From positions 66,108-130,107 of the forward strand of contig CAITJH010000044.1 in NCBI GenBank assembly GCA_903892635.1: 64,000 nt of DNA, written 5' to 3'. The stretch's first letter is position 1; each line of letters starts with the position of its first letter. A model generated the notes under the pieces. It was given only the letters and a program-made list of their open reading frames with translations, made no database searches and was not told where the DNA came from. The translations under genes and the position numbers were made by a program. Shown in pieces: positions 31,925 through 49,974 of this stretch. The stretch comes from an uncultured Actinomycetes bacterium. Its GTDB lineage: Bacteria; Actinomycetota; Actinomycetes; S36-B12; UBA5976.

Positions 31925-34255
31925 CTAAGGGGTAACTGTCACCAAAGTGGTTTTGTTGAACGTGGCATATGTGGCGTCGCCGTTGTTATATGTCTGGATA
32001 GAGCAGACGCCTGGGGCTTTCGCCGCCGTGATCTTGTAACTAACAATCAATTTAGTTTTGACCGTCTTTTTGCCAACTTTGGCCTTAATCGTTTTCGCGG
32101 TTGATTTTGCTTTGCAGGCTCCACTTGCCACAACGTAGGTCTGGATTCCTTGGGCAGATTTAGCGGGCACTGTGATGGACTTTTTCTTCTTAACGGTTGA
32201 TGGAATCGTCATCGACTGCAACGGCTTTGTATCTACATTTGTCGATGGGCCAGACTCTCGTGGAGTTTCCACTTGCTCCTCGGAAGTTCCGGCTGAAACC
32301 TTTATGACGGAGCTAGTTAGATTTTGTGACGATTCGTTGCCATAAATATCTGTTGGCGGAATTGCGTCAGTACTTATGGCGGGATCCAGCGTCCAGCGAT
32401 AGCAATGATTTGGGGTTGCTGTAAAAATTTCATTGGAAGTTTGCTGGCCTTCAGATCTCCAAATTGAGTTGCAGCTACCGTCAGAAATTGTTGATACTTG
32501 CCTAATTGCAATTCCAGAACTAGCTAACCCATTTAAGTCGGACGCAGACCAGTTTGGTTGCAATCGAGTGGAAGTTGCCGTTAGATCGGAAACTGGACGT
32601 CGCCAGGTTAAAACCGGACCAATGGAATCTGTCACAAAATGAATGTGGTTAGACGCAGCAGATCGATATGTGTACGCATCTATTGCCACAACTTGTAAGT
32701 TAAATTCCGAATTGTCTGGGAGTCTAACCTCGAAAATGAATGCATTATTATCAACATCGCAGGAACCAGGATCCCCAAAATCGGGAAGTCCGCTGTCCAT
32801 GCATGGGTAGGAAGGAGCTCGTTCAAGAGTTAACAAAGTTGAACAAAGATCGAATTCCCCAAAATTAATCGAACACAAATAATCTGCAGTCAATGCGGTT
32901 TGGGAATTGCCCTGATCGTCCTGTTGCCGAATCAGAAATCTCTTAACTACTGAACCATCCGGACTTGATTCGTACAATTTTTCTAATCGAGGGCGACTAA
33001 CGACGGAAGTATGGATTGCTATATCTGAATTTACGGACAACGACCCTACGTATCCAGGCGTCGGTAAGTCAAGTAAAGCGTGAGCTGCAGCACCTCCGAA
33101 ATTAACAATCCCACCATCATTAGGCGAAAGACTTGTTACGGAGGAATATTCAAGGCTCGACGTGGCATCCCCTTGATGCACCTCGTATTGAAATGTAACT
33201 TCGTTTGTTTCACTTCCGGAAACGTATCTTGCGATTGCAGTACCTGAATCTAGTTGAACTTCCAGCTCAGGTGTCCCATCAACAGCAACTGGACGATTGA
33301 ACTTGACTCGAATCGCGATGGATTGGTCAGTTGAATATGAGCCATTTGGCATCGGCGAAGATACCTTCACTACAAAAGGATTTGAATTGCTTGGAATCAG
33401 ATACTTAACAATTACAATTCCTGAACCACCAGCGCTACCAGCCTGGCCGTTTCCACCCGCTCCTCCACCACCAGTATTTGCGGTTGCTGGCGACGGGATC
33501 CCCGAGCCAGTTATCCCCGTGGCTCCGCCGCCTGCGCCACCACTTCCAGGTTGAGCGTCAGCGCCAGAGCCACCGCCACCGCCACCAAAATATTTAGTGA
33601 TGCCGTCAAAATTTGATTGGAAGCCGTTAATTCCATTCGTTGGCGCTATGTTGAATTCAAACCAAACACCATTGCCGCCATTACCACCCGAGAGATTTCC
33701 ATGAGCGACCTCTCCGGCTCCACTTGAGCCACCGTTGTTTCCAGCGTCCCCGATTTTGCAGTATCCCGGGCCCAGGAAGTTGCAACCGTTCCCGCCAACA
33801 CCGCCCGGAGCTGTCACCGAGTCTGTCGTTGTTGAGATGGATGAATCACCACCGGAGGCACCGAGTTTGGTTACGTATGAAGGATCGCCATACGCGCCAC
33901 CCAAGCCGCCCAGTCCTACGGTGATATCAACGTTGCCCGAAACTGGAAGTCCTGAGACGATAGCGCCACCGCCACCACCGCCGCCACCGCCGCCATCTGC
34001 TCCACCGCCGCCACCGCCGCCAACAGCAAGTACATCAACGGAAGTCACGCCAGCGGGGACTTGCCACGTACAAGACTCGAGAAAATATCGAATAGCGAAA
34101 TACTGACCGTTTTCTTCTAATACACCATCCTTGGGCGAACAAGGATCGCTAGCTATTGCAACCGATGGTTGCAGACCAAGTGAAGAAATACTAAAAATTA
34201 GGCTTAAAACAATGACCAGCAATGAATTGCGTCGAAGATTCAATTTGCTAGTCAT
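31925..34255 (-). CDS. Secreted 776-aa protein: N-terminal glycine-rich domain (poly-Gly runs) plus Ig-like/beta-rich modules
   Basis: Sec signal peptide (..SVAIA/SD). Motif CTWQVPAGVTSVDVLAVGGGGGGGADGGGGGGGGGG, further GGxGG blocks, then beta-rich repeats and a Lys-rich C-terminus. Confidence 0.7.
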   Translation of the reverse strand: MTSKLNLRRNSLLVIVLSLIFSISSLGLQPSVAIASDPCSPKDGVLEENGQYFAIRYFLESCTWQVPAGVTSVDVLAVGGGGGGGADGGGGGGGGGGAIVSGLPVSGNVDITVGLGGLGGAYGDPSYVTKLGASGGDSSISTTTDSVTAPGGVGGNGCNFLGPGYCKIGDAGNNGGSSGAGEVAHGNLSGGNGGNGVWFEFNIAPTNGINGFQSNFDGITKYFGGGGGGSGADAQPGSGGAGGGATGITGSGIPSPATANTGGGGAGGNGQAGSAGGSGIVIVKYLIPSNSNPFVVKVSSPMPNGSYSTDQSIAIRVKFNRPVAVDGTPELEVQLDSGTAIARYVSGSETNEVTFQYEVHQGDATSSLEYSSVTSLSPNDGGIVNFGGAAAHALLDLPTPGYVGSLSVNSDIAIHTSVVSRPRLEKLYESSPDGSVVKRFLIRQQDDQGNSQTALTADYLCSINFGEFDLCSTLLTLERAPSYPCMDSGLPDFGDPGSCDVDNNAFIFEVRLPDNSEFNLQVVAIDAYTYRSAASNHIHFVTDSIGPVLTWRRPVSDLTATSTRLQPNWSASDLNGLASSGIAIRQVSTISDGSCNSIWRSEGQQTSNEIFTATPNHCYRWTLDPAISTDAIPPTDIYGNESSQNLTSSVIKVSAGTSEEQVETPRESGPSTNVDTKPLQSMTIPSTVKKKKSITVPAKSAQGIQTYVVASGACKAKSTAKTIKAKVGKKTVKTKLIVSYKITAAKAPGVCSIQTYNNGDATYATFNKTTLVTVTP

Positions 34256-34275: not shown

Positions 34276-34938
34276 TTAGAAAAGTTTGCCAAGAAATGGA
34301 ATTACGACAAGAACTTTTCCAATTACTGAGTCTGCTTTTACTTGTGCAAATCCAGCATCGGTCTGAAGTAACACATCTTCTTGGGCAATAGAGTTCACTC
34401 GGCCCAAGATATTTTGATTTGCCTCATCGCCAAATTTTGCAACGATTAACTGGTTCTCCGAGACGTCGCCGCCTGGTGCCGCAACAACAAGTGACGAATC
34501 TGCTGATCCAAATCCTGCGCTTGATCCGACGGTTGGGTGAACCAAGGTAAGCGGACTAACAATGAATGCAACCACAATCGACGCAATAACTAGCAGCGGT
34601 ATTACAAATGGACCGAAATTGAGCTGGCGTTTTTGCGCCTTGCGTCGCGCACTTCGCGAACTCATGTCGACATGGGCTGCACCAGTTTCATTTGCCGATT
34701 TCGCCGCTTCCGGTTGTGCGTCATTAGTAACACCTAGCAGGAGGCGAGTTGTTCTGGAATCTGGTCGTCCCGTGCCACGCCAAGTTGCAATTTCTACAAC
34801 TGAGCCTGCTGGGAGTTCTCCGACGAGGAGCTTTTGTCCGTCCGGAAGATCAATGACCAGAGGAGCTTTAGGATTCGAAACACCATCGTGAACTTTAATA
34901 CCCTCGAGATTTTCATTTTCCTCATTCACATAAATCAC
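34276..34938 (-). CDS. Bitopic membrane protein; ectodomain resembles a signal peptidase I fold without catalytic Ser/His motifs
   Basis: 220 aa, GTG start sharing one base with the upstream stop (TAGTG). One TM segment. The C-terminus LGRVNSI..EDVLLQTDAG..VIGKVLVVIPFLG parallels HRIIG..WIVQGDAN..IQGVVVGKIPGIG of the neighbouring peptidase. Confidence 0.45.
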   Translation of the reverse strand: MIYVNEENENLEGIKVHDGVSNPKAPLVIDLPDGQKLLVGELPAGSVVEIATWRGTGRPDSRTTRLLLGVTNDAQPEAAKSANETGAAHVDMSSRSARRKAQKRQLNFGPFVIPLLVIASIVVAFIVSPLTLVHPTVGSSAGFGSADSSLVVAAPGGDVSENQLIVAKFGDEANQNILGRVNSIAQEDVLLQTDAGFAQVKADSVIGKVLVVIPFLGKLF

Positions 34939-35813
34939 TACCCCGAAATTTCAAAGGCAACATCAGAAACCTGCAGAGATAAAACAGATCCAATCTGGCC
35001 ACGATTTATTGTGAGGATTCCCTCAGGTGAAGCTATCTGTCCTGTAGCGAATGTGATTGTGGAAAGCACAGTTGAAGTTGAGGATTTCAAAAGCAACAAA
35101 GTTAACGTCTGATTACTGCATGCCGCACTTACATTCTTCAAAAGAATCTGATCAACCTTGAAACTGAAGGATGCAAAGTCCCAATAAGACTTGAGTTCGA
35201 CTTTCACATTTTGGTCACACGCACCAATTGCAGCGCTACCTTGGCCGTTAGATATTCCTGAAGCTCCATCAATGCCATTTATGCCATCAATTCCATTTGC
35301 TCCCGGTGCTCCAGGTGATCCCGGTGCGCCGTTCTGGCCCGCAGGACCAGCTGGCCCAGCCGGACCTGGCGCGCCATCTGCTCCAATAACTCCATTTCCA
35401 GCTGTGTAAGTCCCGTCACCGGTTATTGCGGTGCCAGGCTGACCATCCGTAGAAGTATTGCCGCTGCCAAACATAAGTCCGCCATCGTTTCCAGTGGATC
35501 CATTCGTGGAACCTGTCGTTCCGTTACCTGAAGAGGTTCCGTTCGCGCCATTACTTCCAGCATTCCCATTGGAGATCCCGGTGCGGGAAAGACCGGTCAC
35601 ATTACTAACGGTTTTCCAGTCATTCGGAATAAATCCAAACATGCGAAGCAGAGAAAGGAATAACAAGAGAACAATGAGTCGAACCAATAGACGCACGAAC
35701 CAACGTACGTTTTCATCTTCCTCAACTAGAACTCGTCGGCCATCAGCAAAATATTTATATGTGACCGGCTTTTGTCCGATAAGCGAATACTTGATCTCTT
35801 CAAATAAGGTCAT
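34938..35813 (-). CDS. Membrane-anchored collagen-like (GXY repeat) protein with C-terminal beta domain
   Basis: 291 aa. N-terminal cytoplasmic segment plus one TM, then a Gly/Asn/Ser/Thr-rich linker. An uninterrupted run GADGAPGPAGPAGPAGQNGAPGSPGAPGANGIDGINGIDGASG gives about 14 GXY triplets. Confidence 0.75.
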   Translation of the reverse strand: MTLFEEIKYSLIGQKPVTYKYFADGRRVLVEEDENVRWFVRLLVRLIVLLLFLSLLRMFGFIPNDWKTVSNVTGLSRTGISNGNAGSNGANGTSSGNGTTGSTNGSTGNDGGLMFGSGNTSTDGQPGTAITGDGTYTAGNGVIGADGAPGPAGPAGPAGQNGAPGSPGAPGANGIDGINGIDGASGISNGQGSAAIGACDQNVKVELKSYWDFASFSFKVDQILLKNVSAACSNQTLTLLLLKSSTSTVLSTITFATGQIASPEGILTINRGQIGSVLSLQVSDVAFEISG

Positions 35814-36535
35814 GATTCTCGCCTAACTCCGTCAAGAACCAGCCAGCCGCCAAAAATTACTATTCCGAGAAGAACAAGTATTTGAGGTGTGAGTAATCTT
35901 CCGATACCTGGGATCTTGCCAACGACAACACCTTGGATTTCTGTCGCGGTAGGCCGCTGGGTATCGGGCGCTGGATTTGCGTCCCCTTGAACAATCCAAC
36001 CGTCATTCGCATTACCGCCAATAATGCGGTGCGAGAAATCGGCAACTTTGGTGCCATCAAATCTTGAGCCTGTGTAGACAACAACGTCACCAAGTTTTGG
36101 AGTCTTGATGGTGTCATTGACAACCATGATTAAATCTCCTGGGTTAATTGCAGGAACCATTGATCCAGTTAGAACAACGCGTGCAGAAAATGTTTTTGTC
36201 ACACCTGCCAACATGACTGCGCCCATGAGTATTACAAAAATAACTGCAGTGATTTGACCAAACCAATTTCTTTTTTCAATCTCAAGCTGGCCACCAATGA
36301 AAGTGGCTCCGCTTAAATATTCTTCAGCATTTATATCTCGTTCAATTAAACGAGGTTTATTTGTTTCAGTATCAACATCCATCAGGATGGAAAAGTCTTT
36401 TTCGCCTTCTAATCGAAGCGTGACAAGTACGCGCATTTCCGGATCAAGTTGCTCACCGTACGGGGTAAATGAAATGCCTACGAGCCCGTCACTGTTCGTG
36501 ACGGGCTCGCGAGTACTTGCCACGCTCGAGGCCAT
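35810..36535 (-). CDS. Signal peptidase I, ER/archaeal (S26B, SipW-like) type, with ~95-aa N-terminal cytoplasmic extension
   Basis: Catalytic Ser box LTGSMVPAINPGD, His box FSHRIIG and a GDAN box, with TM helices before and after the catalytic domain. An ATGA overlap couples it to the next gene. Confidence 0.78.
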   Translation of the reverse strand: MASSVASTREPVTNSDGLVGISFTPYGEQLDPEMRVLVTLRLEGEKDFSILMDVDTETNKPRLIERDINAEEYLSGATFIGGQLEIEKRNWFGQITAVIFVILMGAVMLAGVTKTFSARVVLTGSMVPAINPGDLIMVVNDTIKTPKLGDVVVYTGSRFDGTKVADFSHRIIGGNANDGWIVQGDANPAPDTQRPTATEIQGVVVGKIPGIGRLLTPQILVLLGIVIFGGWLVLDGVRRES

Positions 36536-36555: not shown

Positions 36556-37134
36556 TTAGGCGGTTTCGATAGTGATCTTAGAAAAAATTGACGCAAGATC
36601 CCCAGAATCAGCACTGGATGTCACGTGGGTTCCGCTCGGAATGATATCGAGAACTCCATCGGTTACCCCGCTACCAGCACCAAGTGCCTCAACACTTCCC
36701 GAAGCAAGATCAGTGAGGGTTCCGTCGTTGTTTAAAGTGAATCCATATTCATAAAGTACAGTTCCGCTGTTATCGCGGACTGCTACGCGGAATGTCTTGC
36801 CGCCGCAGAGATCGAGTATTGAGTCTGTATTAATTGTGGCGGGATCTGAATTTTCAATCTTTATGTGAGCCAAATTGAACTTATTGTCTGAAGAGTTGTA
36901 CTCGGCTACAGGTGTTACTTTTACAGCTGGCGCACATGCCGTGACAGTCGTTACACCTTGACCGAACTCAACAGGGCTTCCGCTGTTGATACCAATGTTG
37001 GCGGCAAATGTGGAACCGATTACTGGAGCAAGAGCCAGAATGGCAATTCCGACGTAGATACCCTTGCGCGACTTCTTCTTTGTGGTCTCGACAGCTTCGA
37101 TCGGTTGGTCGACAACTAGTGTGCGACGTGCCAT
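36556..37134 (-). CDS. Small exported protein, paralog A (SipW-dependent-type signal peptide; candidate fibre subunit)
   Basis: 192 aa with AGGGAG SD. Basic KKKSRK stretch plus hydrophobic core ending ..GSTFA/AN, as in TasA/camelysin GGGTFA. It shares the EFGQG box, two Cys and a C-terminal ITIETA with paralog B. Confidence 0.65.
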   Translation of the reverse strand: MARRTLVVDQPIEAVETTKKKSRKGIYVGIAILALAPVIGSTFAANIGINSGSPVEFGQGVTTVTACAPAVKVTPVAEYNSSDNKFNLAHIKIENSDPATINTDSILDLCGGKTFRVAVRDNSGTVLYEYGFTLNNDGTLTDLASGSVEALGAGSGVTDGVLDIIPSGTHVTSSADSGDLASIFSKITIETA

Positions 37135-37257
37135 TACTTACTCCCTATGTCCTGGTCAATCCCCCGTGGGATAAACCGTGTATTTCGTACTTACTGAATT
37201 TAATTTAGGGACTAAATTGAATTCAGTCAAGTTAAAATTACCTTATTAGGTAACGAT

Positions 37258-37767
37258 TTATGCTGTTTCTACCGTAACTCGCGCAATATCAATGGAATTT
37301 ATGGTTCCAGTGATTGGAACAGTGATTTGGTCTATGCCCCCAGGGCCGGAGACCTCTGTTGGCATGTAGGTGATGGCAGATCCATCACTCTTTAAATCAA
37401 GGGTGTTTCCATACGCATCAAGCGCCTTAATGGTCAAGGTTTTGTTCAGGCAAGCCGCAGTATCCAAATCGCCAAGTGTGATCGATGTGGCCCGGAAACT
37501 CGAGCTTGCATTGTCATAGGTGGTACCAATTTGAACCGTTATTGAGTTGTCGCAAACCATGGTGGCTTGGCTGCCCTGGCCAAATTCGATTGCATTGTTG
37601 GTATTTATAGCTATTGAGCTGGCAAAAGTGGTGCTCAAACTAGGCAAAAATGCCAGAAGCAATGCGCCAATCCACAACTTTCGAGGATTTTTGGCCCTGT
37701 TATTGGCCTTAACAGGTGCCGTAGGTCCGTCTAGGTATGCCGAAAGCGGAGTTGAGTGTCGTGCCAT
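37258..37767 (-). CDS. Small exported protein, paralog B (SipW-dependent-type signal peptide; candidate fibre subunit)
   Basis: 169 aa with AAGGGGAG SD. Signal peptide ends ..LSTTFA/SS. It carries IAINTNNAIEFGQG, two Cys and a C-terminal VTVETA. Confidence 0.65.
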   Translation of the reverse strand: MARHSTPLSAYLDGPTAPVKANNRAKNPRKLWIGALLLAFLPSLSTTFASSIAINTNNAIEFGQGSQATMVCDNSITVQIGTTYDNASSSFRATSITLGDLDTAACLNKTLTIKALDAYGNTLDLKSDGSAITYMPTEVSGPGGIDQITVPITGTINSIDIARVTVETA

Positions 37768-37888
37768 CTGAACTCCCCTTTCATCTAAAGGAAAAAATCA
37801 CTAAACTGAATTCAGTACATACCTACCCAAATGTACAGGAAATACCCATTTATTTACGAATTTTCAGTGCAGATGCCTAAGTCGAAAG

Positions 37889-39820
37889 GTGATTAAGCAG
37901 AAAATGCCTAACTCATTCCCTTTCAGGGCTAAATTCAGACATTCTGTACCATTTCGATTGCTTAACCAATCGTCGAAAACAAGATTTGTCTTCTCTGCGT
38001 TTACATCACTTGTGTTGGTGATCACCGGGATATTAATTAATCAGGGTATTTCGAGAGCGGATGCGCAAGTATCTTTTTCCTACTTCATTGATGCCCCATT
38101 GGTTCAGAATTCGTATCTATGGACTGAGTATGAAAATTCACAATCAACACACTTGGCGAGCTTTAACAACATTCCCAAGAACTCAAATTGTTCATTTGAT
38201 AATTTTGCCGGCGCAAGTATTTCAAATAACCCAGGTGGTCGGTGCTTTACTGACGACACTTCTAATTGGGGTGGAGCGACAACGTTGGGATCTAACGCCA
38301 CAGTTGGTGGTTACACAGGATCGCAATTTGGTGGCACTACCATGCACGGGGTAGTCGAGGGGACTGGTACAACAATTTCGTTCGATCAACCGCAAAGATA
38401 CTTCGGAATCTGGTGGAGTGCAGGAAGCTACGGTAACCAACTGGCTTTCTACAGTGGGGATAAAATGGTTGGATCCACCTCTGCCGATGAAGTAATGACG
38501 AGATTGTCCGACGAAAACGCCCAGTTTAGATCAAATGGAGGTAACCAATTCTCTCGTGATCTGTATTACGGACATCCTGGAAGTTACAGCACAACTGAAA
38601 TTAATGATTGGAACCAGATTGTCGAAATAACCGACACATCAAAACTGGAAGACGCCACAAATTTCTCAAAAGGTGAACTTGATCCTGGGGAACCGTTTAC
38701 CTACATTCATTTCTTCACAGACAACGACGTAACTTTTGACAAAGTAATTATGAGTGCACCTGGCAATGGCTTCGAATTCGACAACATTGTTGTTTCAGAT
38801 GAAGTTGGATTGCTTTCAAGTGTAAATCCAAGGTTAGTCCAGCAAGGAACAGTTCTTCTGCCTACCAAAGTGCAGTTTGATCCAAACGTAACTCAAGGAG
38901 GCACGGGTCAAGCGTTTTCACAATTTGAGAGTGCGCCGACAGTTTTACCTTATAACTGTCCTGATTACCCGACTAAGTGTGTTGAGAACAACATGGGTGG
39001 CTATCCAAATTTCATTGGTTGGAATACCGAGCCCGATGGTTCAGGTACACAATTTGGAACTTTTACCGATGAAGTGTACGGCTGGCAATATTTTGACCAA
39101 GAACTTCCATCGGCCACATACGACTTTGCAGCACCCGTAACTTTATACGCGCAATGGAGTTATCGCTTTAGTTTTATGTTAAACCCTTTTGATTACAGCA
39201 GTGCGTCTAGTACTCCGTACATAAATGTGCTTGCAGGAAGTAATCTCACTCTTCCCTCGCCGGCGCCGAGAGCTGGCTTTACATTTTCAGGATGGGCAAT
39301 TGACACCACTCCTTGGTATCGTCCCCCGAGCGAGGACGACTTGATTATCATTGGTCAACCTGGAGATGAGATTGCGTCTTCACAATATACCCAAGACAAC
39401 TACGCTAATTTTTATGAAATCTGGACCCAGGGGTCTACGCCAGTTACCAATCCAGCAATACAAGCAATTTCGTCAACGATCCCTGTTGACCCGAGAGTTT
39501 CGGTAGCTAGTATTCCTAGCCTTCCGGTAGACACCGCATCCTTTAACTTGTGCGTGGTTGAAGTTACGGATATGTCAGGTACCCAAGTGACCCAGTCAAG
39601 TGACCTTTCGTTTGAAACTTCACCCGCTACAAGTTCTACTGGAGTAATAAATATTTCGGCATCATCACCAATAGCTGCAAACGGATCTCGATATATTCGC
39701 ATAACCGTTTCAGACACCTCACTCCAAAACTGCGAAACTGGAAACTCGGTGACCATTGAATTAAGTCCACTTCAACTTGGTGCAGGAAATACCGTGACTG
39801 TTCCGATTGGAAGACAATGA
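37889..39820 (+). CDS. Large secreted protein with beta-sandwich N-domain and two B-repeat-like (..F.GW..) modules
   Basis: 643 aa with signal/anchor ..GISRADA. Motifs FGIWWSAGSYGNQLAFYSG, then FIGWNTEPDGSGTQFG and FTFSGWAID resembling Listeria-Bacteroides repeats. Start is GTG at 37889 or ATG at 37904. Confidence 0.6.
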   Translation: MIKQKMPNSFPFRAKFRHSVPFRLLNQSSKTRFVFSAFTSLVLVITGILINQGISRADAQVSFSYFIDAPLVQNSYLWTEYENSQSTHLASFNNIPKNSNCSFDNFAGASISNNPGGRCFTDDTSNWGGATTLGSNATVGGYTGSQFGGTTMHGVVEGTGTTISFDQPQRYFGIWWSAGSYGNQLAFYSGDKMVGSTSADEVMTRLSDENAQFRSNGGNQFSRDLYYGHPGSYSTTEINDWNQIVEITDTSKLEDATNFSKGELDPGEPFTYIHFFTDNDVTFDKVIMSAPGNGFEFDNIVVSDEVGLLSSVNPRLVQQGTVLLPTKVQFDPNVTQGGTGQAFSQFESAPTVLPYNCPDYPTKCVENNMGGYPNFIGWNTEPDGSGTQFGTFTDEVYGWQYFDQELPSATYDFAAPVTLYAQWSYRFSFMLNPFDYSSASSTPYINVLAGSNLTLPSPAPRAGFTFSGWAIDTTPWYRPPSEDDLIIIGQPGDEIASSQYTQDNYANFYEIWTQGSTPVTNPAIQAISSTIPVDPRVSVASIPSLPVDTASFNLCVVEVTDMSGTQVTQSSDLSFETSPATSSTGVINISASSPIAANGSRYIRITVSDTSLQNCETGNSVTIELSPLQLGAGNTVTVPIGRQ

Positions 39821-40030: not shown

Positions 40031-42079
40031 GTGAAGTCGCGATTAAGAAATGTTTTGTTAGCACTTGGGCTAACCTTTCTGATCTCGCCTGTTTCGACGG
40101 CTCATTCGGCTGATAAATCATTTACGTGCGCTAATAAGGTTTGTTCAATTACTTTTGATTCGAATCAACAATATGCGGACTGGATAGTTCCCGAGGATGT
40201 TTACGCACTTTCTCTCGATATCACGGGTGCACCTGGTGGAACTAGTGGAACTGGCAATGCATCGGGACCAGTAGGACGAGTTTATGGACTGTTAGATGTC
40301 ATTCCTGGAAGTAAAGTTCGATTCGCAGTCGGTGGCGCTGGCCAATCGGCACGACTTGGAAGTCGTGGTGGAACCAATCCAGTCGGTCACTTCGCTGGCG
40401 GTGGCGGCGGAATCGGTGCTTTCGCAAGTACTAGTGGTGGCGGTGGTGGTGCTGCGTCGGTCGTCTTCTATCGAAACCAAGTTCTCATCGCCGGAGGTGG
40501 AGGCGGAGGAAATGGCAGTGATGCAACCGGAGGAGGTGGCGGTGGTGCTGATGGTGGCGCAGCCGGAACTTTCTCTCCACAGAATCCAATTCACGGTGCA
40601 GCTGGTCGCAACTTACCTGGCGGAATGCAATCAGGCTTTATTGAAGCTGGCAATAGTTCAGCAGGAAAAATATTTGTTACCTACACAGATCCAAGGGTGA
40701 ATGTTGCTAAGAAAGATCAGTTCCTTTTACTAGGTGTGGCCGATCCGAGTCGACCACTTAGTGACCCACGTGGGATTGCAAACCTAGCCATTGCATCAGC
40801 AGCCATTGTTGGTGCAGTTGGCTCACGCCGAGATCATGACCACGTAACTGATAAAAAACAAGAAGGTCAAGTAGAAGATCTAGACACGGTAAGCACCGAC
40901 TATTTAGCTCGAAAGGAAAGCGGGCAAGGCTTTGGGGATCGACTGCCAATTTGGCGTTCCCCGTTATTAAACGGCTACCAAAATCGACTTTGGAAAATTG
41001 TTGATCGGGTAGACCATCGCACCCCACTGCTTACCCGACTATTTAATGACGGTGCATACCTACGCGCAAGCATTGGAAGTCTTGCATTCTTGCTACCTGC
41101 ATTCTCATTAGTCCTTGGAATTCAAACTGGGTTAACCGCTGGTTGGCGACTTACTCCCGATGCACAACTGGTTCTAATACTTGCGGTGATAGGTGTCTTT
41201 GATGCTTTTGCCGGCGCACTTGGCTTTCTCGCTCTCGCTTTAACGCTTGGTATCCGATTCAGTTTTATGCCACTTACTGCGATCGAGTACTTCATTGGGC
41301 TAGCCGCACTGGGATTGATTCCCACTTTGGCTGTTGGAGCATTCCGACCGTTTCGTCGAACTAAGTCAATAAGTCTCGCATCTTGGTGGGAGCGAATCAC
41401 AGATTTTGCAGTCATTCCGTTCTTTACAATTTGGTCGACTGCTTCACTAATCGGCGGACTAGCTATTCTCGCTCGGCACGAAACAAGCATTTCAAATAAT
41501 GCACAAAAGATTGCGTTGGCTATGGGTGGCGCATTCTTAGTGCGCCTTCTGATTGAAGAGTTTGTGTCTCATTTATTCCCACAACGACTAGGTCAAGACC
41601 ATCCAGTTGAACTTGATGACCCAAGTTTGGGGCATCAAATATTCTTAATAGTTCTCCGCACAATAACGTTTCTAGTCGTTGCAATTTCATTCCTAGGTAA
41701 TTGCTGGCAGGTTTGGGTTGCGACGCTCATAATGTTAATCCCGCAAATCGTTGGCTTAGTAAAAGACAACTTTCCTAATTTTCCAAATTTATGGCAGGTT
41801 ATGCCAGGTGGCGTTCCGGGTATTGCATTCAACATTGGAATTGGAACTGCGACGGCATATTTTCTGATTAAGTACCTAGGCGAAACAGAGCAAATGGCTA
41901 AGTTGGTTTTTGTTCTCGCACCGATTCCAGGGACCGCGATTGGATTAGTCAAAACTTTTGGTAGACATGCAATTGAGGGCGACGTTCGGTGGTACCGAAG
42001 ACCTCAAATTCGAATTTTCTACCGAATCATTGGACCGGTTATTTTTCTAGTGGTTCTGAAACTCACTCACTTTATTTAA
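40031..42079 (+). CDS. Glycine-rich ectodomain fused to polytopic (~8-10 TM) membrane domain
   Basis: 682 aa, GTG start, Sec signal ..STAHSA. It has DWIVPEDVYALSLDITGAPGG, then GGGGG/GGGGGG blocks as in the 776-aa protein. The C-terminal 350 aa are hydrophobic. Confidence 0.65.
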   Translation: MKSRLRNVLLALGLTFLISPVSTAHSADKSFTCANKVCSITFDSNQQYADWIVPEDVYALSLDITGAPGGTSGTGNASGPVGRVYGLLDVIPGSKVRFAVGGAGQSARLGSRGGTNPVGHFAGGGGGIGAFASTSGGGGGAASVVFYRNQVLIAGGGGGGNGSDATGGGGGGADGGAAGTFSPQNPIHGAAGRNLPGGMQSGFIEAGNSSAGKIFVTYTDPRVNVAKKDQFLLLGVADPSRPLSDPRGIANLAIASAAIVGAVGSRRDHDHVTDKKQEGQVEDLDTVSTDYLARKESGQGFGDRLPIWRSPLLNGYQNRLWKIVDRVDHRTPLLTRLFNDGAYLRASIGSLAFLLPAFSLVLGIQTGLTAGWRLTPDAQLVLILAVIGVFDAFAGALGFLALALTLGIRFSFMPLTAIEYFIGLAALGLIPTLAVGAFRPFRRTKSISLASWWERITDFAVIPFFTIWSTASLIGGLAILARHETSISNNAQKIALAMGGAFLVRLLIEEFVSHLFPQRLGQDHPVELDDPSLGHQIFLIVLRTITFLVVAISFLGNCWQVWVATLIMLIPQIVGLVKDNFPNFPNLWQVMPGGVPGIAFNIGIGTATAYFLIKYLGETEQMAKLVFVLAPIPGTAIGLVKTFGRHAIEGDVRWYRRPQIRIFYRIIGPVIFLVVLKLTHFI

Positions 42080-43577: not shown

Positions 43578-43859
43578 TTAGCCACCAGCGACTGCAGGGA
43601 CGATTGAGATCTGGGCACCATCTGGTGTCGGCGTTGCTAGACCTTCTAAGAATCGAACATCATCGTCATTGATGTAGAAGTTGATGAAGCGACGCATTTC
43701 GCCAGTATCGCTCACAAGACGCTGCTTGATACCTGGGTATGACGCCTCAAGCGTGTCAATGACGCCGCCGAGTGTGGCCTCACCTGGTTCAACATCGACG
43801 TTAGCTTCACCACCGGTGTAAGTGCGAAGGATTGTTGGGATACGTACGGAGACACTCAT
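43578..43859 (-). CDS. MoaD/ThiS-family sulfur-carrier protein (C-terminal GG)
   Basis: 93 aa with a beta-grasp pattern, ending ..PAVAGG. Overlaps the stop of the upstream ThrC-like gene by 4 nt. Confidence 0.8.
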   Translation of the reverse strand: MSVSVRIPTILRTYTGGEANVDVEPGEATLGGVIDTLEASYPGIKQRLVSDTGEMRRFINFYINDDDVRFLEGLATPTPDGAQISIVPAVAGG

Positions 43860-45115
43860 TTGCCACTCGCAATCACTAGAGAAACGGAATCAACACTTGG
43901 TGCAATTGTTGCAGTAAAACCATCGCCTGTTGACACAGCATCGAGAGTTTTTAGTCCTTCACCGGTGTTGACGATGACGGTTTCGGCAGTTGGGTCGAGA
44001 AGTCCCTGAGCCAACAACTTGCGAGTAACTGCCACGGTCACGCCGCCAGCTGTCTCGGCAAAAATGCCCTCGGTTTCAGCCAGCAAGCGAATACCTTCAA
44101 TGACTTCCGCATCGGTCACGTCACCGATCGCACCGTTAGTGCGACGAACGGCATCAAGTGCATACGGGCCATCTGCAGGGTTTCCGATCGCAAGAGACTT
44201 GGCGATTGTGTTCGGTTTCACTGGACGAATGACATCTTGGCCATCCGCAAACGCAGTCGACACTGGATTGCAGCCAGTGGCTTGCGCACCAAATACTCGA
44301 TAGTTGTGTTCTTCGACAAGTCCCAGAGCGAGAAACTCGCGCCAGCCTCTATCAATCTTGGTGAGCAACGAACCCGAAGCAACCGGAATAACAACCTGAT
44401 CTGGCAAACGCCAGCCAAGTTGTTCGGCAATTTCGTAACCGACTGTCTTGGAACCTTCTGCGTAATACGGACGAAGGTTGACGTTAACAAAACCCCAATC
44501 GGCAGAAACTTCTTCGCCAATTAATTCGGAGCACAAACGATTCACATCGTCGTAGTTGCCATCGATGCCGATGACGAAACCGTTGTAAGCAGCAGTCGCC
44601 TGAATTTTGTGCGACTCAAGGTTTGACGGGACAAGTACAACTGAACGCTGACCGGCACGCGCAGCAGCGGCTGCCACTGCTTGCGCCAAGTTTCCAGTCG
44701 ATGCGCATGCAAGTGTTTTGAAGCCAAGTTGAATACCTGCCGTTTGAGCAACGGCAACGACGCGGTCCTTGAAGGAGTGCGTCGGATTGCCACTGTCATC
44801 TTTGACCCACAACTTGCCCGTGATGCCGAGCGCCTTGGCAAGATTGTCAGCTGGCTGCAACCGAGTCATACCCGGTGAAAGCGTGCGGGTTTCCGCAACG
44901 TTTGCTGGAACCGGCAAGAGCGGTGCGTATCGCCACAATGAAAGTGGGCCGGCTTGGATTTGTTCGCGAGTTACCGTGCCAAATTCATACGCAACTTCTA
45001 GTGGGCCAAAGCATTCCCAGCATGAGTAGTCGGCGCCTAGAGTCGCGTGTGCTCCACAAGCACGACAAACAAGATGAGTTGCGGCACCAAATGATGCGGC
45101 GGGGGTTTCAGACAT
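43856..45115 (-). CDS. Threonine-synthase-family PLP enzyme with N-terminal Zn ribbon (candidate sulfur-carrier-dependent homocysteine synthase)
   Basis: CRACG..CWEC zinc ribbon and PLP-lysine motif PTHSFKDR. 419 aa. It is coupled to the MoaD-like gene and sits behind a SAM-I riboswitch. Confidence 0.75.
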   Translation of the reverse strand: MSETPAASFGAATHLVCRACGAHATLGADYSCWECFGPLEVAYEFGTVTREQIQAGPLSLWRYAPLLPVPANVAETRTLSPGMTRLQPADNLAKALGITGKLWVKDDSGNPTHSFKDRVVAVAQTAGIQLGFKTLACASTGNLAQAVAAAAARAGQRSVVLVPSNLESHKIQATAAYNGFVIGIDGNYDDVNRLCSELIGEEVSADWGFVNVNLRPYYAEGSKTVGYEIAEQLGWRLPDQVVIPVASGSLLTKIDRGWREFLALGLVEEHNYRVFGAQATGCNPVSTAFADGQDVIRPVKPNTIAKSLAIGNPADGPYALDAVRRTNGAIGDVTDAEVIEGIRLLAETEGIFAETAGGVTVAVTRKLLAQGLLDPTAETVIVNTGEGLKTLDAVSTGDGFTATIAPSVDSVSLVIASGK

Positions 45116-45262
45116 AGCGTGAGCCTTTCGTCATCTGCCTTAGCGATTCAACATTGAATCTCTAAGCCGGAATTGGCACCGTGTTGCGCGGCCACGAATG
45201 GTTTCGCAATGGTTGCCGGGGCTTCAACGGGCCGGTCCCTCTGCCCCTCTGGATGAGGTGTT
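45116..45262 (-). ncRNA. SAM-I (S-box) riboswitch
   Basis: Minus strand reads CTCATCCAGAGGGGCAGAGGGACCGGCCCGTTGAAGCCCCGGCAACC...GGTGCCAATTCCGGCTTAG...CTAAGGCAGATGA, matching the conserved S-box core. The 3' strand of stem P1 abuts the SD GAAAGG of the ThrC-like gene. Confidence 0.88.
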
Positions 45263-48708: not shown

Positions 48709-48885
48709 CGCCCACCGTCTTCATTTAGAGCAATTTTCAAGATAATCCACTAGCTGTTTCACAGACATTTCCTACCAAGTCCGACCAGAATTGATCTATT
48801 GCCACACTGGCAATGCAGGGGCTGAAAAGCCGCTGACCTTTACTACGGATCGTTCGGCACGTACCTGCCGATGAAGGAGAACAAA

Positions 48886-49974
48886 ATGGCGTCTGTGTCA
48901 TTTAAGGCAGCAACCCGAATATATCCGGGCTCAACCATTCCAGCTGTAAACGCACTTGATCTTGAAATTGCAGATGGTGAATTTCTTGTACTCGTCGGAC
49001 CATCAGGTTGTGGCAAGTCAACGACTTTGCGCATGCTTGCAGGTTTAGAAGATATTGACGAAGGCGCAATCTACATCGGTGACCGTGATGTCACTGATGT
49101 AGCACCAAAGGATCGCGACATTGCAATGGTCTTTCAAAATTACGCCCTTTATCCACACATGTCTGTCGCTGAGAACATGGGCTTCGCGCTCAAGATCGCC
49201 GGAGTCGACAAGGCCGAAATTGGCAAGCGTGTCGAGGAGGCTGCAAAGATTCTTGATCTTGAGCAATTTCTTGACCGCAAGCCAAAGGCACTCTCGGGTG
49301 GTCAACGTCAGCGTGTTGCGATGGGTCGCGCAATTGTCCGTAACCCACAGGTGTTCCTCATGGATGAACCCTTGTCAAACCTTGATGCCAAATTGCGAGT
49401 TCAAACTCGAACTCAAATTGCAGCATTGCAGCAACGTCTCGGCGTGACGACGGTTTACGTTACACACGATCAAACCGAAGCTATGACGATGGGTGATCGA
49501 GTTGCAGTACTCAAGGATGGCTTTTTACAGCAGTGTGCAACTCCTCAAGAACTTTACGATCGTCCCGTCAATGTCTTTGTAGCTGGTTTTATCGGATCAC
49601 CAGCAATGAACTTGGTGGAGGTCCGTATTGATGGCGAAGGCGTGATTGTCGAAGGTGAGCACATCAAACTTTCCGACGACATCCTAAAAGATGCACGCGA
49701 GCAAGGTTTGAATTCCTTGATTCTTGGTTTCCGACCAGAGGACACCACAGTTGGAGGTGAAGGTTTTGCCATGCAAGTCAACATTGTTGAAAGCCTTGGT
49801 GCGGATGGTTACGTATATGGCAATGTGGTGGATGCCAGTGGAAACGCTCATCAAATTACAATTCGAACTAATGGTCGCAATATTCCCCGTCGTGGCGAAA
49901 CAATTCGCCTTCGGGTTTCTAGTGAACACACCCACGCATTCAACTCAGCAACAGGCCTACGCCTCGGAAAATAA
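48886..49974 (+). CDS. Sugar ABC transporter ATP-binding protein (MalK/MsiK/UgpC type)
   Basis: Start at MASVSFK with a GAAGGAG SD. Walker [10 protein letters not shown], signature LSGGQRQR, Walker B FLMDEPLSNLD and a C-terminal MalK-like regulatory domain. Confidence 0.88.
   Translation: MASVSFKAATRIYPGSTIPAVNALDLEIADGEFLVLVGPSGCGKSTTLRMLAGLEDIDEGAIYIGDRDVTDVAPKDRDIAMVFQNYALYPHMSVAENMGFALKIAGVDKAEIGKRVEEAAKILDLEQFLDRKPKALSGGQRQRVAMGRAIVRNPQVFLMDEPLSNLDAKLRVQTRTQIAALQQRLGVTTVYVTHDQTEAMTMGDRVAVLKDGFLQQCATPQELYDRPVNVFVAGFIGSPAMNLVEVRIDGEGVIVEGEHIKLSDDILKDAREQGLNSLILGFRPEDTTVGGEGFAMQVNIVESLGADGYVYGNVVDASGNAHQITIRTNGRNIPRRGETIRLRVSSEHTHAFNSATGLRLGK

Follow-up and report, generated by a model that had tools for sequence, protein, structure and literature searches.

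A small two-cysteine secreted module linked to an S26B signal peptidase in freshwater Actinomycetota: candidate subunits of a cell-surface fibre

Introduction

The TasA superfamily combines a jelly-roll core with polymerisation by donor strands, and its members are frequently linked to a signal peptidase (10.64898/2026.01.04.697558; PMC9245690). In TasA, the peptidase SipW cuts after the sequence GGGTWA, and residues 28–38, which follow the site directly, are the donor strand; the N-terminus of TapA is similar (PMC9674648). In BsaA of C. perfringens, a disordered N-terminal loop becomes the donor strand and the joint is then locked by an isopeptide bond (Asn35-Lys74/Glu56; PMC11580942). AbpX of P. 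abyssi has a signal peptide of 54 residues, a mature subunit of 163 residues and an adjacent peptidase of the TIGR02228 family (10.64898/2026.01.04.697558). Secreted subunits that self-associate and have a SipW-type peptidase dedicated to them are a known theme. Here we describe two adjacent genes, A and B, lying next to the gene of such a peptidase in a 64,000-nucleotide stretch of DNA, called hereafter the window, from an uncultured Actinomycetes bacterium (GenBank assembly GCA_903892635.1, contig CAITJH010000044.1, positions 66,108 to 130,107, forward strand).

A and B probably build or decorate a cell-surface fibre. What is new at this locus is best described as the same peptidase theme on an unrelated, small immunoglobulin (Ig)-like module, which has a paralog on a collagen stalk and recurs widely as a tag at the N-terminus of other proteins.

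Results

Two tandem paralogs with conserved ends

Genes A and B are tandem open reading frames (ORFs) of the minus strand, located exactly where the initial annotation had put them (Table 1). It had also proposed that they are paralogs, and their similarity is indeed well beyond chance (BLASTP, 27% identity over 132 amino acids (aa), E 5e-14). Both genes have a strong Shine-Dalgarno site, GAAAGGGGAG located 5 nt before the ATG of B and AGGGAG 6 nt before that of A.

Each protein begins with a long signal peptide, in which a polar or basic n-region of 24–30 residues precedes a single hydrophobic stretch (residues 25–49 in A, 31–54 in B). The signal peptides end in ..GSTFA in A, followed by AN, and in ..STTFA in B, followed by SS. 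This c-region, with Thr at P3, an aromatic residue or Leu at P2 and Ala at P1, resembles the GGGT[WYF]A of TasA/CalY, a likeness already noted in the initial annotation. The predicted mature N-termini can be aligned (ANIGINSGSPVEFGQG in A, SSIAINTNNAIEFGQG in B), and both proteins contain exactly two cysteines (67 and 110 in A, 72 and 106 in B) and close on similar C-termini (KITIETA in A, RVTVETA in B).

The view of the initial annotation that conserved ends flank a variable, beta-rich core was borne out by two observations. The AlphaFold models of A and B agree with a beta-rich core. Among A-type orthologs, identity was 0.88 in the n-region, 0.78 in the h- and c-regions, 0.68 in the mature N-terminus and 0.49 in the C-terminus, and was lowest, 0.37, in the core. 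Orthologs of B share 53–80% identity.

A large family of short and long forms

A profile search against 1.84 billion representatives showed that the module belongs to a family of at least 1372 clusters at E ≤1e-3, of which 954 are found at E ≤1e-10. Both proteins of the window match the hidden Markov model (HMM) of the module strongly (E 1e-51 for B, 1e-48 for A). In 291 aligned members, the P1 Ala, the Phe-Gly-Gln-Gly motif and the two cysteines are 100% invariant. Conservation is 96% for the P3 Thr and for the Glu of EFGQG, 91% for the Asp that follows the first Cys, and 90% for the Glu of the C-terminal strand (Gln in 9%). With a slash marking the predicted cut, the consensus reads G-[ST]-T-[FL]-A / [AS]-[SN]-I-x-[LIV]-N-x-G-x-x-[VIL]-E-F-G-Q-G-x6-C-D. 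A core of about 100 residues, a two-Cys beta-sandwich, follows, and the module ends on a [IV]-T-[IV]-E-[ST] strand.

Sequence searches with A and B retrieved solely unnamed metagenomic proteins without Pfam domains. The module had no match in Pfam (47 members scanned), in NCBIfam or among PDB sequences, and searches of the databases and of the accessible literature library found no curated family, solved structure or paper that covers either the module or the cluster. In NCBIfam, the first 73–78 residues of A, of B and of one long-form member gave no match at E ≤10 (release 20, with any signal model cognate to SipW that it contains), and the full-length A and B gave no relevant one.

Short forms of 165–230 aa resemble A and B, and in long forms of 350–840 aa a passenger domain lies behind the module. 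Among the passengers are RCC1 propellers, Peripla_BP_6, Listeria-Bacteroides repeats with Lcl_C, Laminin_G_3, C-type lectin, YWTD repeats and glycine-rich domains. One metagenomic protein of 529 aa (P0076) carries a solute-binding protein of the branched-chain-amino-acid type (Peripla_BP_6) behind the module, so that the module may replace the lipoprotein anchor of an ATP-binding cassette (ABC)-transporter binding protein. In another family member (P0033, 320 aa, locus L005, 10001–10963, Candidatus (Ca.) Nanopelagicaceae), a Ser/Thr-rich insert of about 100 residues splits the module, and the HMM matches residues 1–93 and 194–306; the loop between the two cysteines therefore tolerates large inserts.

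Named sources of the family are Ca. Nanopelagicaceae and Ca. Planktophila versatilis. A scan of one genome per GTDB species was made with two peptide patterns (PVEFGQGV; GST[LF]AA[SN]I[NG][LI]), so the taxonomic picture is limited by these patterns. It gave 22 confirmed loci, all in metagenome-assembled genomes (MAGs) of Actinomycetota, including Nanopelagicaceae, Planktophila and Microbacteriaceae; most of these MAGs are named as if they came from lake or reservoir samples. The putative assembly system was found here in Actinomycetota only, and nearly all instances come from freshwater metagenomes.

A dedicated S26B peptidase and a conserved gene order

The gene immediately downstream of A encodes an S26B peptidase, an enzyme that the initial annotation had proposed to look for. 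It scores 56.4 bits against TIGR02228, above the cutoff of 51.85, and 24.9 against Pfam Peptidase_S26. Its catalytic set is Ser/His/Asp: the Ser of GSM, the His of SHR and the Asp of GDAN..D align with human SEC11A and SEC11C (7P2P, 7P2Q), and these residues are kept in the eight cluster peptidases. The enzyme is not SipW itself, since it scores 25.9 against the SipW equivalog NF046067, whose cutoff is 190. A and B are linked to the gene of an S26B peptidase and carry an invariant -3 Thr/-1 Ala site, at which this enzyme may process their signal peptides.

About 90 residues precede the first transmembrane (TM) segment of this peptidase, and this N-terminal extension is presumably cytoplasmic. 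All eight cluster peptidases have such an extension, of 70–90 residues. The n-regions of the signal peptides (MARRTLVLDQPVE..KKKSRKG in the A type, STPLSAYLDGP in the B type) are more conserved than the mature proteins and, as they precede the h-region, should stay on the cytoplasmic side. The conserved n-regions and the peptidase extensions may form a recognition pair.

Four genes of the same strand follow A directly, with small spacers or overlaps; they encode the peptidase, a collagen-repeat protein, a 220-aa membrane protein and a 776-aa secreted protein. To place this order, all ORFs of the fetched loci were translated and searched with the module HMM and with the neighbour proteins of the window. 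Eight independent loci have two to four short modules, then the S26B peptidase, sometimes a multi-TM protein, then the collagen-module protein and the 220-aa homolog. They are the window, L003/L004, L005/L006, L007, L008, L010, L021 and L025, and the named ones are all Actinomycetota: Ca. Nanopelagicaceae (L005/L006), Ca. Planktophila versatilis (L007) and a Microbacteriaceae MAG (L010). Two complete genomes contain the cluster; they measure 1.36 and 1.43 Mb.

Long forms are located elsewhere, without an adjacent peptidase. The initial annotation had held that homologs lacking a linked peptidase would speak against its proposal, and such homologs do exist, as the long forms lie far from any peptidase gene; but the MAG UFOp-RH-23may17-590, which contains at least six dispersed long-form loci, also has one peptidase cluster (L021). 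The pattern of dispersed long forms beside a single core cluster is that of one peptidase cluster with numerous substrates elsewhere in the genome, which is also how other dedicated sorting systems are arranged. Nine consecutive members occupy positions 1–12988 of L009 (scaffold MEHR18-2), with passengers that include Peripla_BP_6, Laminin_G_3, RCC1 and BNR/sortilin; no peptidase gene was found within the 13 kb examined at this locus.

The collagen-repeat protein has 16 Gly-X-Y triplets (residues 141–188) and ends in a third, partial A/B domain (hhalign against the A/B family, probability 94%, E 9e-8; module HMM, E 6e-13). This copy retains the GQG, the ACD and the second Cys. The alignment of GIDGASGISNGQGSAAIGACDQNVKV to GINSGSPVEFGQGVTTVTACAPAVKV places the collagen helix where A and B have their free N-terminal segment. 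The protein is probably trimeric. A collagen protein with a partial A/B module is conserved in all eight clusters.

Predicted structures

AlphaFold2 models were made for mature A (alignment of 36 sequences; mean predicted local distance difference test (pLDDT) 78.8, predicted template-modelling score (pTM) 0.73) and mature B (80 sequences; mean pLDDT 85.5, core ≥93, pTM 0.74). These are predicted single chains without a donor strand. With confidence, the models describe A and B as small all-beta sandwiches of the generic Ig/fibronectin type III (FN3)-like kind.

In both models the first 15–16 mature residues, and only these, are unplaced (pLDDT <50); they are the most conserved of the family and are fully covered by the alignments. 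This is what a donor strand would look like in a monomer model. The T-[IV]-E strand at the C-terminus is, in both cases, an integral and confidently modelled part of the protein's own fold. Burial of the termini in their own fold, which the initial annotation regarded as speaking against strand exchange, was thus found for the C-terminal strand and not for the N-terminal 15–16 residues, so that only one terminus can be the exchange element.

Comparison of both models with the PDB by Foldseek gave no match at E ≤1e-3, and TM-scores did not exceed 0.4. The weak matches were generic FN3/Ig sandwiches, FimA (E 0.2–0.5, TM-score 0.23–0.31) and, for A only, the thread subunit 7pnb (E 0.25, TM-score 0.18). 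A structure search of BFVD returned nothing significant. Covariation in the 291 sequences (mutual information with average product correction; effective number of sequences 172) was dominated by the subfamily signal; mature positions +3, +6 and +11 were weakly coupled to the first long strand.

Divergence within the locus

Window proteins were compared with those of L003, the closest syntenic locus. Identity was 87% for the peptidase, 72% for the 682-aa protein encoded on the other side of B, 69% for the 220-aa protein, 59% for the collagen protein, 58% for B and 44% for A. Within A, it was 77% in the signal peptide, 34% in the mature part and 27.5% past the first 25 mature residues. The mature core of A is the fastest-evolving sequence of the locus. 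That the signal peptide has diverged less than its passenger suggests specific recognition, and exposed filament subunits typically combine conserved ends with a hypervariable core.

Comparison with TasA and rejected assignments

The initial annotation had suggested kinship with TasA/camelysin. This did not hold up in any comparison beyond the signal peptide. The Pfam family PF12389 (Peptidase_M73) matched neither A nor B at E ≤1, nor any of the 47 members at E ≤5, and a profile search of PDB sequences gave no link to TasA. By hhalign, the family and TasA align with a probability of 0.66%, in the signal peptide region only; against a profile of seven TasA/CalY sequences the probability was 1–2.5%, over 23–25 signal-peptide columns. 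For these comparisons the TasA sequence was checked against 8AUR, and the TasA/CalY profile was built from six Bacillus plasmid genes. The models of A and B had no significant Foldseek match to the TasA jelly-roll (5OF1, 8AUR), to AbpA or to the thread subunit, and neither TasA nor AbpA was among the top 50 matches of these predicted monomers, which lack a donor strand. Membership of the TasA family was consequently rejected: with no detectable homology, A and B are not filed there, though they may work like TasA.

Other assignments were considered and discarded. For a sortase/LPXTG system, A, B and the collagen protein lack an LPXTG-like motif and a hydrophobic C-terminal tail, ending instead in ..ETA or ..EISG, and the eight cluster and flanking proteins scanned with Pfam and NCBIfam gave no match to a sortase family. 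As to Tat export, A has two arginines at residues 3–4 with about 20 charged or polar residues before the h-region; B and most of the family have no such pair. Type IV and Flp pilins have a class III signal peptide, whose short leader is cut off ahead of a hydrophobic helix that the mature protein keeps; in A and B the invariant small-residue site instead comes after the hydrophobic stretch, the G-F-x-x-x-E motif is absent, and Pfam and NCBIfam scans of the cluster proteins found neither a prepilin peptidase nor an ATPase. A phage origin was also rejected: A and B have no PHROG matches, and the collagen and glycine-rich neighbours match tail-fibre-like families through their repeats only.

Neighbouring genes

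The gene of the 220-aa single-pass protein follows the collagen-like gene in all eight clusters. The protein has a domain ..VIDLPDGQK..ATWRGTGRPDSRT.. N-terminal to the TM segment, with a highly conserved N-terminal motif, and a small domain after it; the former is presumably cytoplasmic and the latter extracytoplasmic. Its homolog is split into two genes in four of the eight clusters (L005 13977–14970, L007 14409–15610, L021 4004–5006, L025 12458–13536). Pfam and NCBIfam scans gave no family match. Compared with the peptidase, BLASTP found nothing and hhalign aligned just the last 23 residues (probability 55%, E 1e-4). These residues (..G.V..V[IF]PF.G) resemble the segment right before the C-terminal TM segment of the peptidase. 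The 220-aa protein might have the role that SipA plays for streptococcal pili, as a peptidase-like partner that has lost its activity.

Glycine-rich-domain proteins flank the cluster on both sides in the window, and homologs flank the clusters of L003, L004 and L008. The 776-aa protein, encoded last in the operon, possibly belongs to the system; its homologs flank the cluster in these three loci and lie near a dispersed member in L020, and its PHROG matches are to tail-fibre-like families. The divergent 682-aa protein, with a weak ALK_LTK_GRD match ahead of about nine TM segments, probably belongs to it as well. Its TM part is weakly similar (E 0.002) to a 510-aa multi-TM protein encoded between the peptidase and collagen genes of L005. 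The 643-aa gene, divergent from B, also adjoins B in L001 and L002, and does not in L003.

A sigma-70-like site in the 123-bp spacer between B and A could give A its own promoter; this is a weak indication, as shuffled sequence contains more sites of this kind than the region does. Taken more widely, the window is a stretch of ordinary chromosome, with GroEL, helicases, an S-adenosylmethionine (SAM) riboswitch and the actinobacterial msiK RNA, the last being consistent with an actinobacterial origin.

Table 1. Features of the A/B locus and its surroundings in the window (positions refer to the window)
Feature	Position	Strand	Description	Evidence
Gene B	37258..37767	-	169-aa precursor; more conserved short-form member	ORF; AlphaFold pLDDT 85.5
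B Shine-Dalgarno site	37773..37782	-	GAAAGGGGAG	read from sequence
B signal peptide	37621..37767	-	residues 1–49; n-region MARHSTPLSAYLDGP..., h-region, c-region S-T-T-F-A	hydropathy, alignment
B mature N-terminal segment (predicted)	37573..37620	-	SSIAINTNNAIEFGQG; candidate donor/docking strand	FGQG invariant; pLDDT <50 for residues 1–16
B C-terminal strand	37261..37281	-	RVTVETA; Glu 90%, else Gln	modelled strand 114–119 within the fold
Gene A	36556..37134	-	192-aa precursor; fast-evolving short-form member; candidate major exposed subunit	ORF
A Shine-Dalgarno site	37141..37146	-	AGGGAG	read from sequence
Promoter-like site upstream of A	37202..37230	-	TTGACT-17-TAAATT, sigma-70-like, in the B-A spacer	consensus scan
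A signal peptide	37003..37134	-	residues 1–44; n-region MARRTLVVDQPIE..KKKSRKG, h-region, c-region G-S-T-F-A	hydropathy, alignment
A mature N-terminal segment (predicted)	36955..37002	-	ANIGINSGSPVEFGQG; candidate donor/docking strand	invariant motif; pLDDT <50 for residues 1–15
A C-terminal strand	36559..36579	-	KITIETA	modelled strand 142–147 within the fold; last 10-residue block mean pLDDT 88
Signal peptidase I (S26B)	35810..36535	-	archaeal/endoplasmic reticulum/SipW type, 241 aa, two TM segments	TIGR02228, Pfam S26
Collagen-repeat membrane protein	34938..35813	-	291 aa; N-terminal TM anchor; C-terminal partial third A/B-domain copy	Pfam Collagen E 7.5e-7
Single-pass membrane protein	34276..34938	-	220 aa	after collagen-like gene in 8/8 clusters
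Secreted glycine-rich-domain protein	31925..34255	-	776 aa; downstream operon end	PF21722 E 8.8e-20
Secreted protein with Npun_F0296 domain	37889..39820	+	643 aa; 'exosortase-dependent surface protein' domain	NF050191 E 5.6e-18
Multi-TM glycine-rich protein	40031..42079	+	682 aa; signal peptide, glycine-rich domain, about nine TM segments; divergent	syntenic in L003/L004, 72% identity
SAM riboswitch	45128..45259	-	upstream of PALP-family enzyme gene (43856–45115)	74.9 bits
msiK RNA motif	48829..48885	+	at start of ABC ATPase gene (48871–49974)	59.8 bits

Discussion

We tentatively favour a reading in which A and B are secreted structural subunits that the peptidase processes, and in which the N-terminus exposed by the cut docks into a further copy of the domain, so that a surface fibre is built or decorated; we put its probability at about 45%. 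A and B would be exported via Sec, and the dedicated S26B peptidase would cut them after the invariant Ala. The freed N-terminus of 15–16 residues contains two short stretches of alternating hydrophobic residues (I-x-L-N and V-E-F), with a Gly/Ser/Pro turn between them. Through donor-strand complementation, known from TasA, AbpA and BsaA, this segment would become a beta-strand in the sandwich of a second copy. The membrane-anchored collagen-stalk protein could serve as an acceptor-only base, since it has an acceptor domain and no free donor segment. B, the conserved protein, would be an adaptor or minor subunit and A, the variable one, the exposed major subunit, and the passenger-bearing long forms would attach to the same scaffold.

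Several points weigh against this fibre. HMM, hhalign and Foldseek comparisons detected no relation in sequence or fold to any known donor-strand fibre. Polymerisation itself is a hypothesis, proposed by analogy with TasA. Cleavage after the invariant Ala (TFA/A) is a prediction from the -3/-1 rule and from invariance. The C-terminal strand, which the initial annotation had also seen as a free exchange element, is modelled confidently inside its own fold. An unplaced N-terminus in the models would equally be expected of a flexible linker or of a peptidase-recognition segment, and the covariation analysis located no partner for it. Lastly, the fusion to Peripla_BP_6 fits a membrane-proximal anchor better than a long fibre.

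In the main rival explanation, possible and on balance unlikely in our estimate, the module forms no polymer and acts as a surface anchor or coat, a stalk close to the membrane or wall; short forms would make a simple coat and long forms display passengers, with no fibre at all. The N-terminal segment would then serve only as a P1'–P16' recognition site of the peptidase, or would attach one to one to the wall or to the collagen-stalk protein. The passengers of the long forms are those typical of surface display, including a solute-binding protein expected near the membrane, and the fold is a generic small Ig/FN3-like sandwich. Greatest conservation in the signal peptide and cleavage region fits recognition by an enzyme. 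However, it is rare for a signal peptidase to require as many as 16 invariant residues on the primed side, and the presence of two to four short paralogs without passengers, together with a collagen-stalk paralog, is hard to explain without contacts between modules. The divergence of the A core, at 27.5% identity where the peptidase has 87%, moreover resembles that of exposed major filament subunits.

Two further explanations keep the polymer and change its ancestry or chemistry. A and B could be extremely divergent true members of the TasA superfamily (TasA, CalY, BsaA, AbpA, AbpX, thread), sharing both ancestry and mechanism, which we find improbable. The logic of the locus is the same, with a subunit bearing a long signal peptide, paralogs and an adjacent TIGR02228-type peptidase (cf. 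10.64898/2026.01.04.697558). The c-region G-x-T-aromatic-A is common to both, as is F-[GA]-x-G some 12–13 residues past the cut; hhalign pairs GSTFAA..I..EFGQG with GGTWAAFNDI..ATFASG, and Foldseek matches the thread subunit 7pnb very weakly (E 0.25). Yet the 47 members have no PF12389 match, the hhalign probabilities of 0.7–2.5% concern the signal peptide alone, neither model reaches a significant Foldseek match, and the TasA jelly-roll differs from the core of A and B, with its roughly 100 residues and invariant disulfide pair. Even less probable is a covalent polymer of the exchange-and-lock type, for which BsaA is the precedent (PMC11580942). The invariant Gln of EFGQG would form an intermolecular isopeptide or ester bond, with the Glu of the C-terminal strand as catalyst. 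Gln59, which has a glycine on either side, is 100% invariant; conservation of Glu190 is 90%, and Lys113 occurs in both A and B. The sole candidate Lys is only 82% conserved, however, and even close A-type orthologs have Glu, Leu, Val or Met in its place, so that a Gln-Lys isopeptide lock is unlikely as a general mechanism; Glu190, in addition, is Gln in 9% of sequences.

A broader proposal, which we regard as doubtful, is that monoderm bacteria have here a third, hitherto unrecognised way to build and load their surface, beside sortase/LPXTG and S-layer/S-layer homology (SLH) systems. An N-terminal tag made of the signal peptide, the EFGQG strand and the disulfide-bearing Ig module would be read by a dedicated S26B peptidase, and the modules would dock by strands onto the collagen-stalk anchor and onto each other. 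If this were true, the ultra-small acI Actinobacteria, which dominate the plankton of fresh waters, would carry a hypervariable fibre or coat, and on it passengers by the dozen with lectin, propeller or solute-binding domains.

Few freshwater bacteria are as abundant as Ca. Nanopelagicales (acI). A multi-gene surface system retained in genomes as small as 1.36 and 1.43 Mb likely matters, be it for the adsorption of phages, for resistance to grazing or for capturing nutrients at the cell surface, and the at least 1372 unannotated clusters and the fast evolution of the A core point in the same direction. With the mechanism still a proposal, the interest of the system rests on the abundance of its hosts in freshwater and on the size of the unannotated family. 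The locus would show SipW-type peptidases paired with self-assembling secreted subunits in a structurally unrelated family as well, and the pairing would then look like a general design and not a peculiarity of TasA. The module is also a concrete candidate for a natural N-terminal display tag.

Relation to known systems

With chaperone-usher pili (FimA/FimH), the system shares an Ig-like subunit with an N-terminal extension, donor-strand complementation, as proposed here, and specialised subunits that bear lectins. It differs in that the host is monoderm, with no chaperone or usher, and in that passengers are C-terminal rather than N-terminal; the Foldseek match to FimA is very weak. Sortase pili and LPXTG systems likewise have Ig-like subunits, major and minor paralogs, a dedicated processing enzyme in the operon and adhesin-type passenger display, and the pili of S. 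pyogenes also need the signal-peptidase-like protein SipA (PMC4049620). In contrast to sortase substrates, the sorting information is N-terminal here, and the passengers lie C-terminal to the module.

Among archaeal filaments, AbpX is similar in that A has a 44-residue signal peptide, a mature part of 148 residues and a downstream peptidase of the TIGR02228 family. The AbpX peptidases have ten TM helices, whereas the one described here has two. AbpX, AbpA, Tafi and the thread of S. acidocaldarius are linked to TasA by HHpred and have a jelly-roll core; A and B show no link to TasA, their models match no fibre in the PDB at Foldseek E ≤1e-3, and their hosts are mesophilic freshwater Actinomycetota.

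The tapA-sipW-tasA system of B. subtilis, CalY of B. cereus and sipW-bsaA-bsaB of C. perfringens also consist of small, secreted, beta-rich paralogous pairs adjoining a dedicated SipW/S26B peptidase. The c-region is of the same kind (P3 Thr, P2 aromatic or Leu, P1 Ala). As in TasA and TapA, the residues right after the cut are conserved between the paralogs and the N-terminal segment is not accommodated in the monomer. Unlike these systems, A and B share neither sequence nor fold with TasA beyond the signal peptide, their core is half the size and carries an invariant Cys pair, and the peptidase of the cluster has an N-terminal extension of some 90 residues before its first TM segment. The cluster further adds a collagen-stalk paralog and a conserved membrane protein, and its module is found fused N-terminally to many different passengers.

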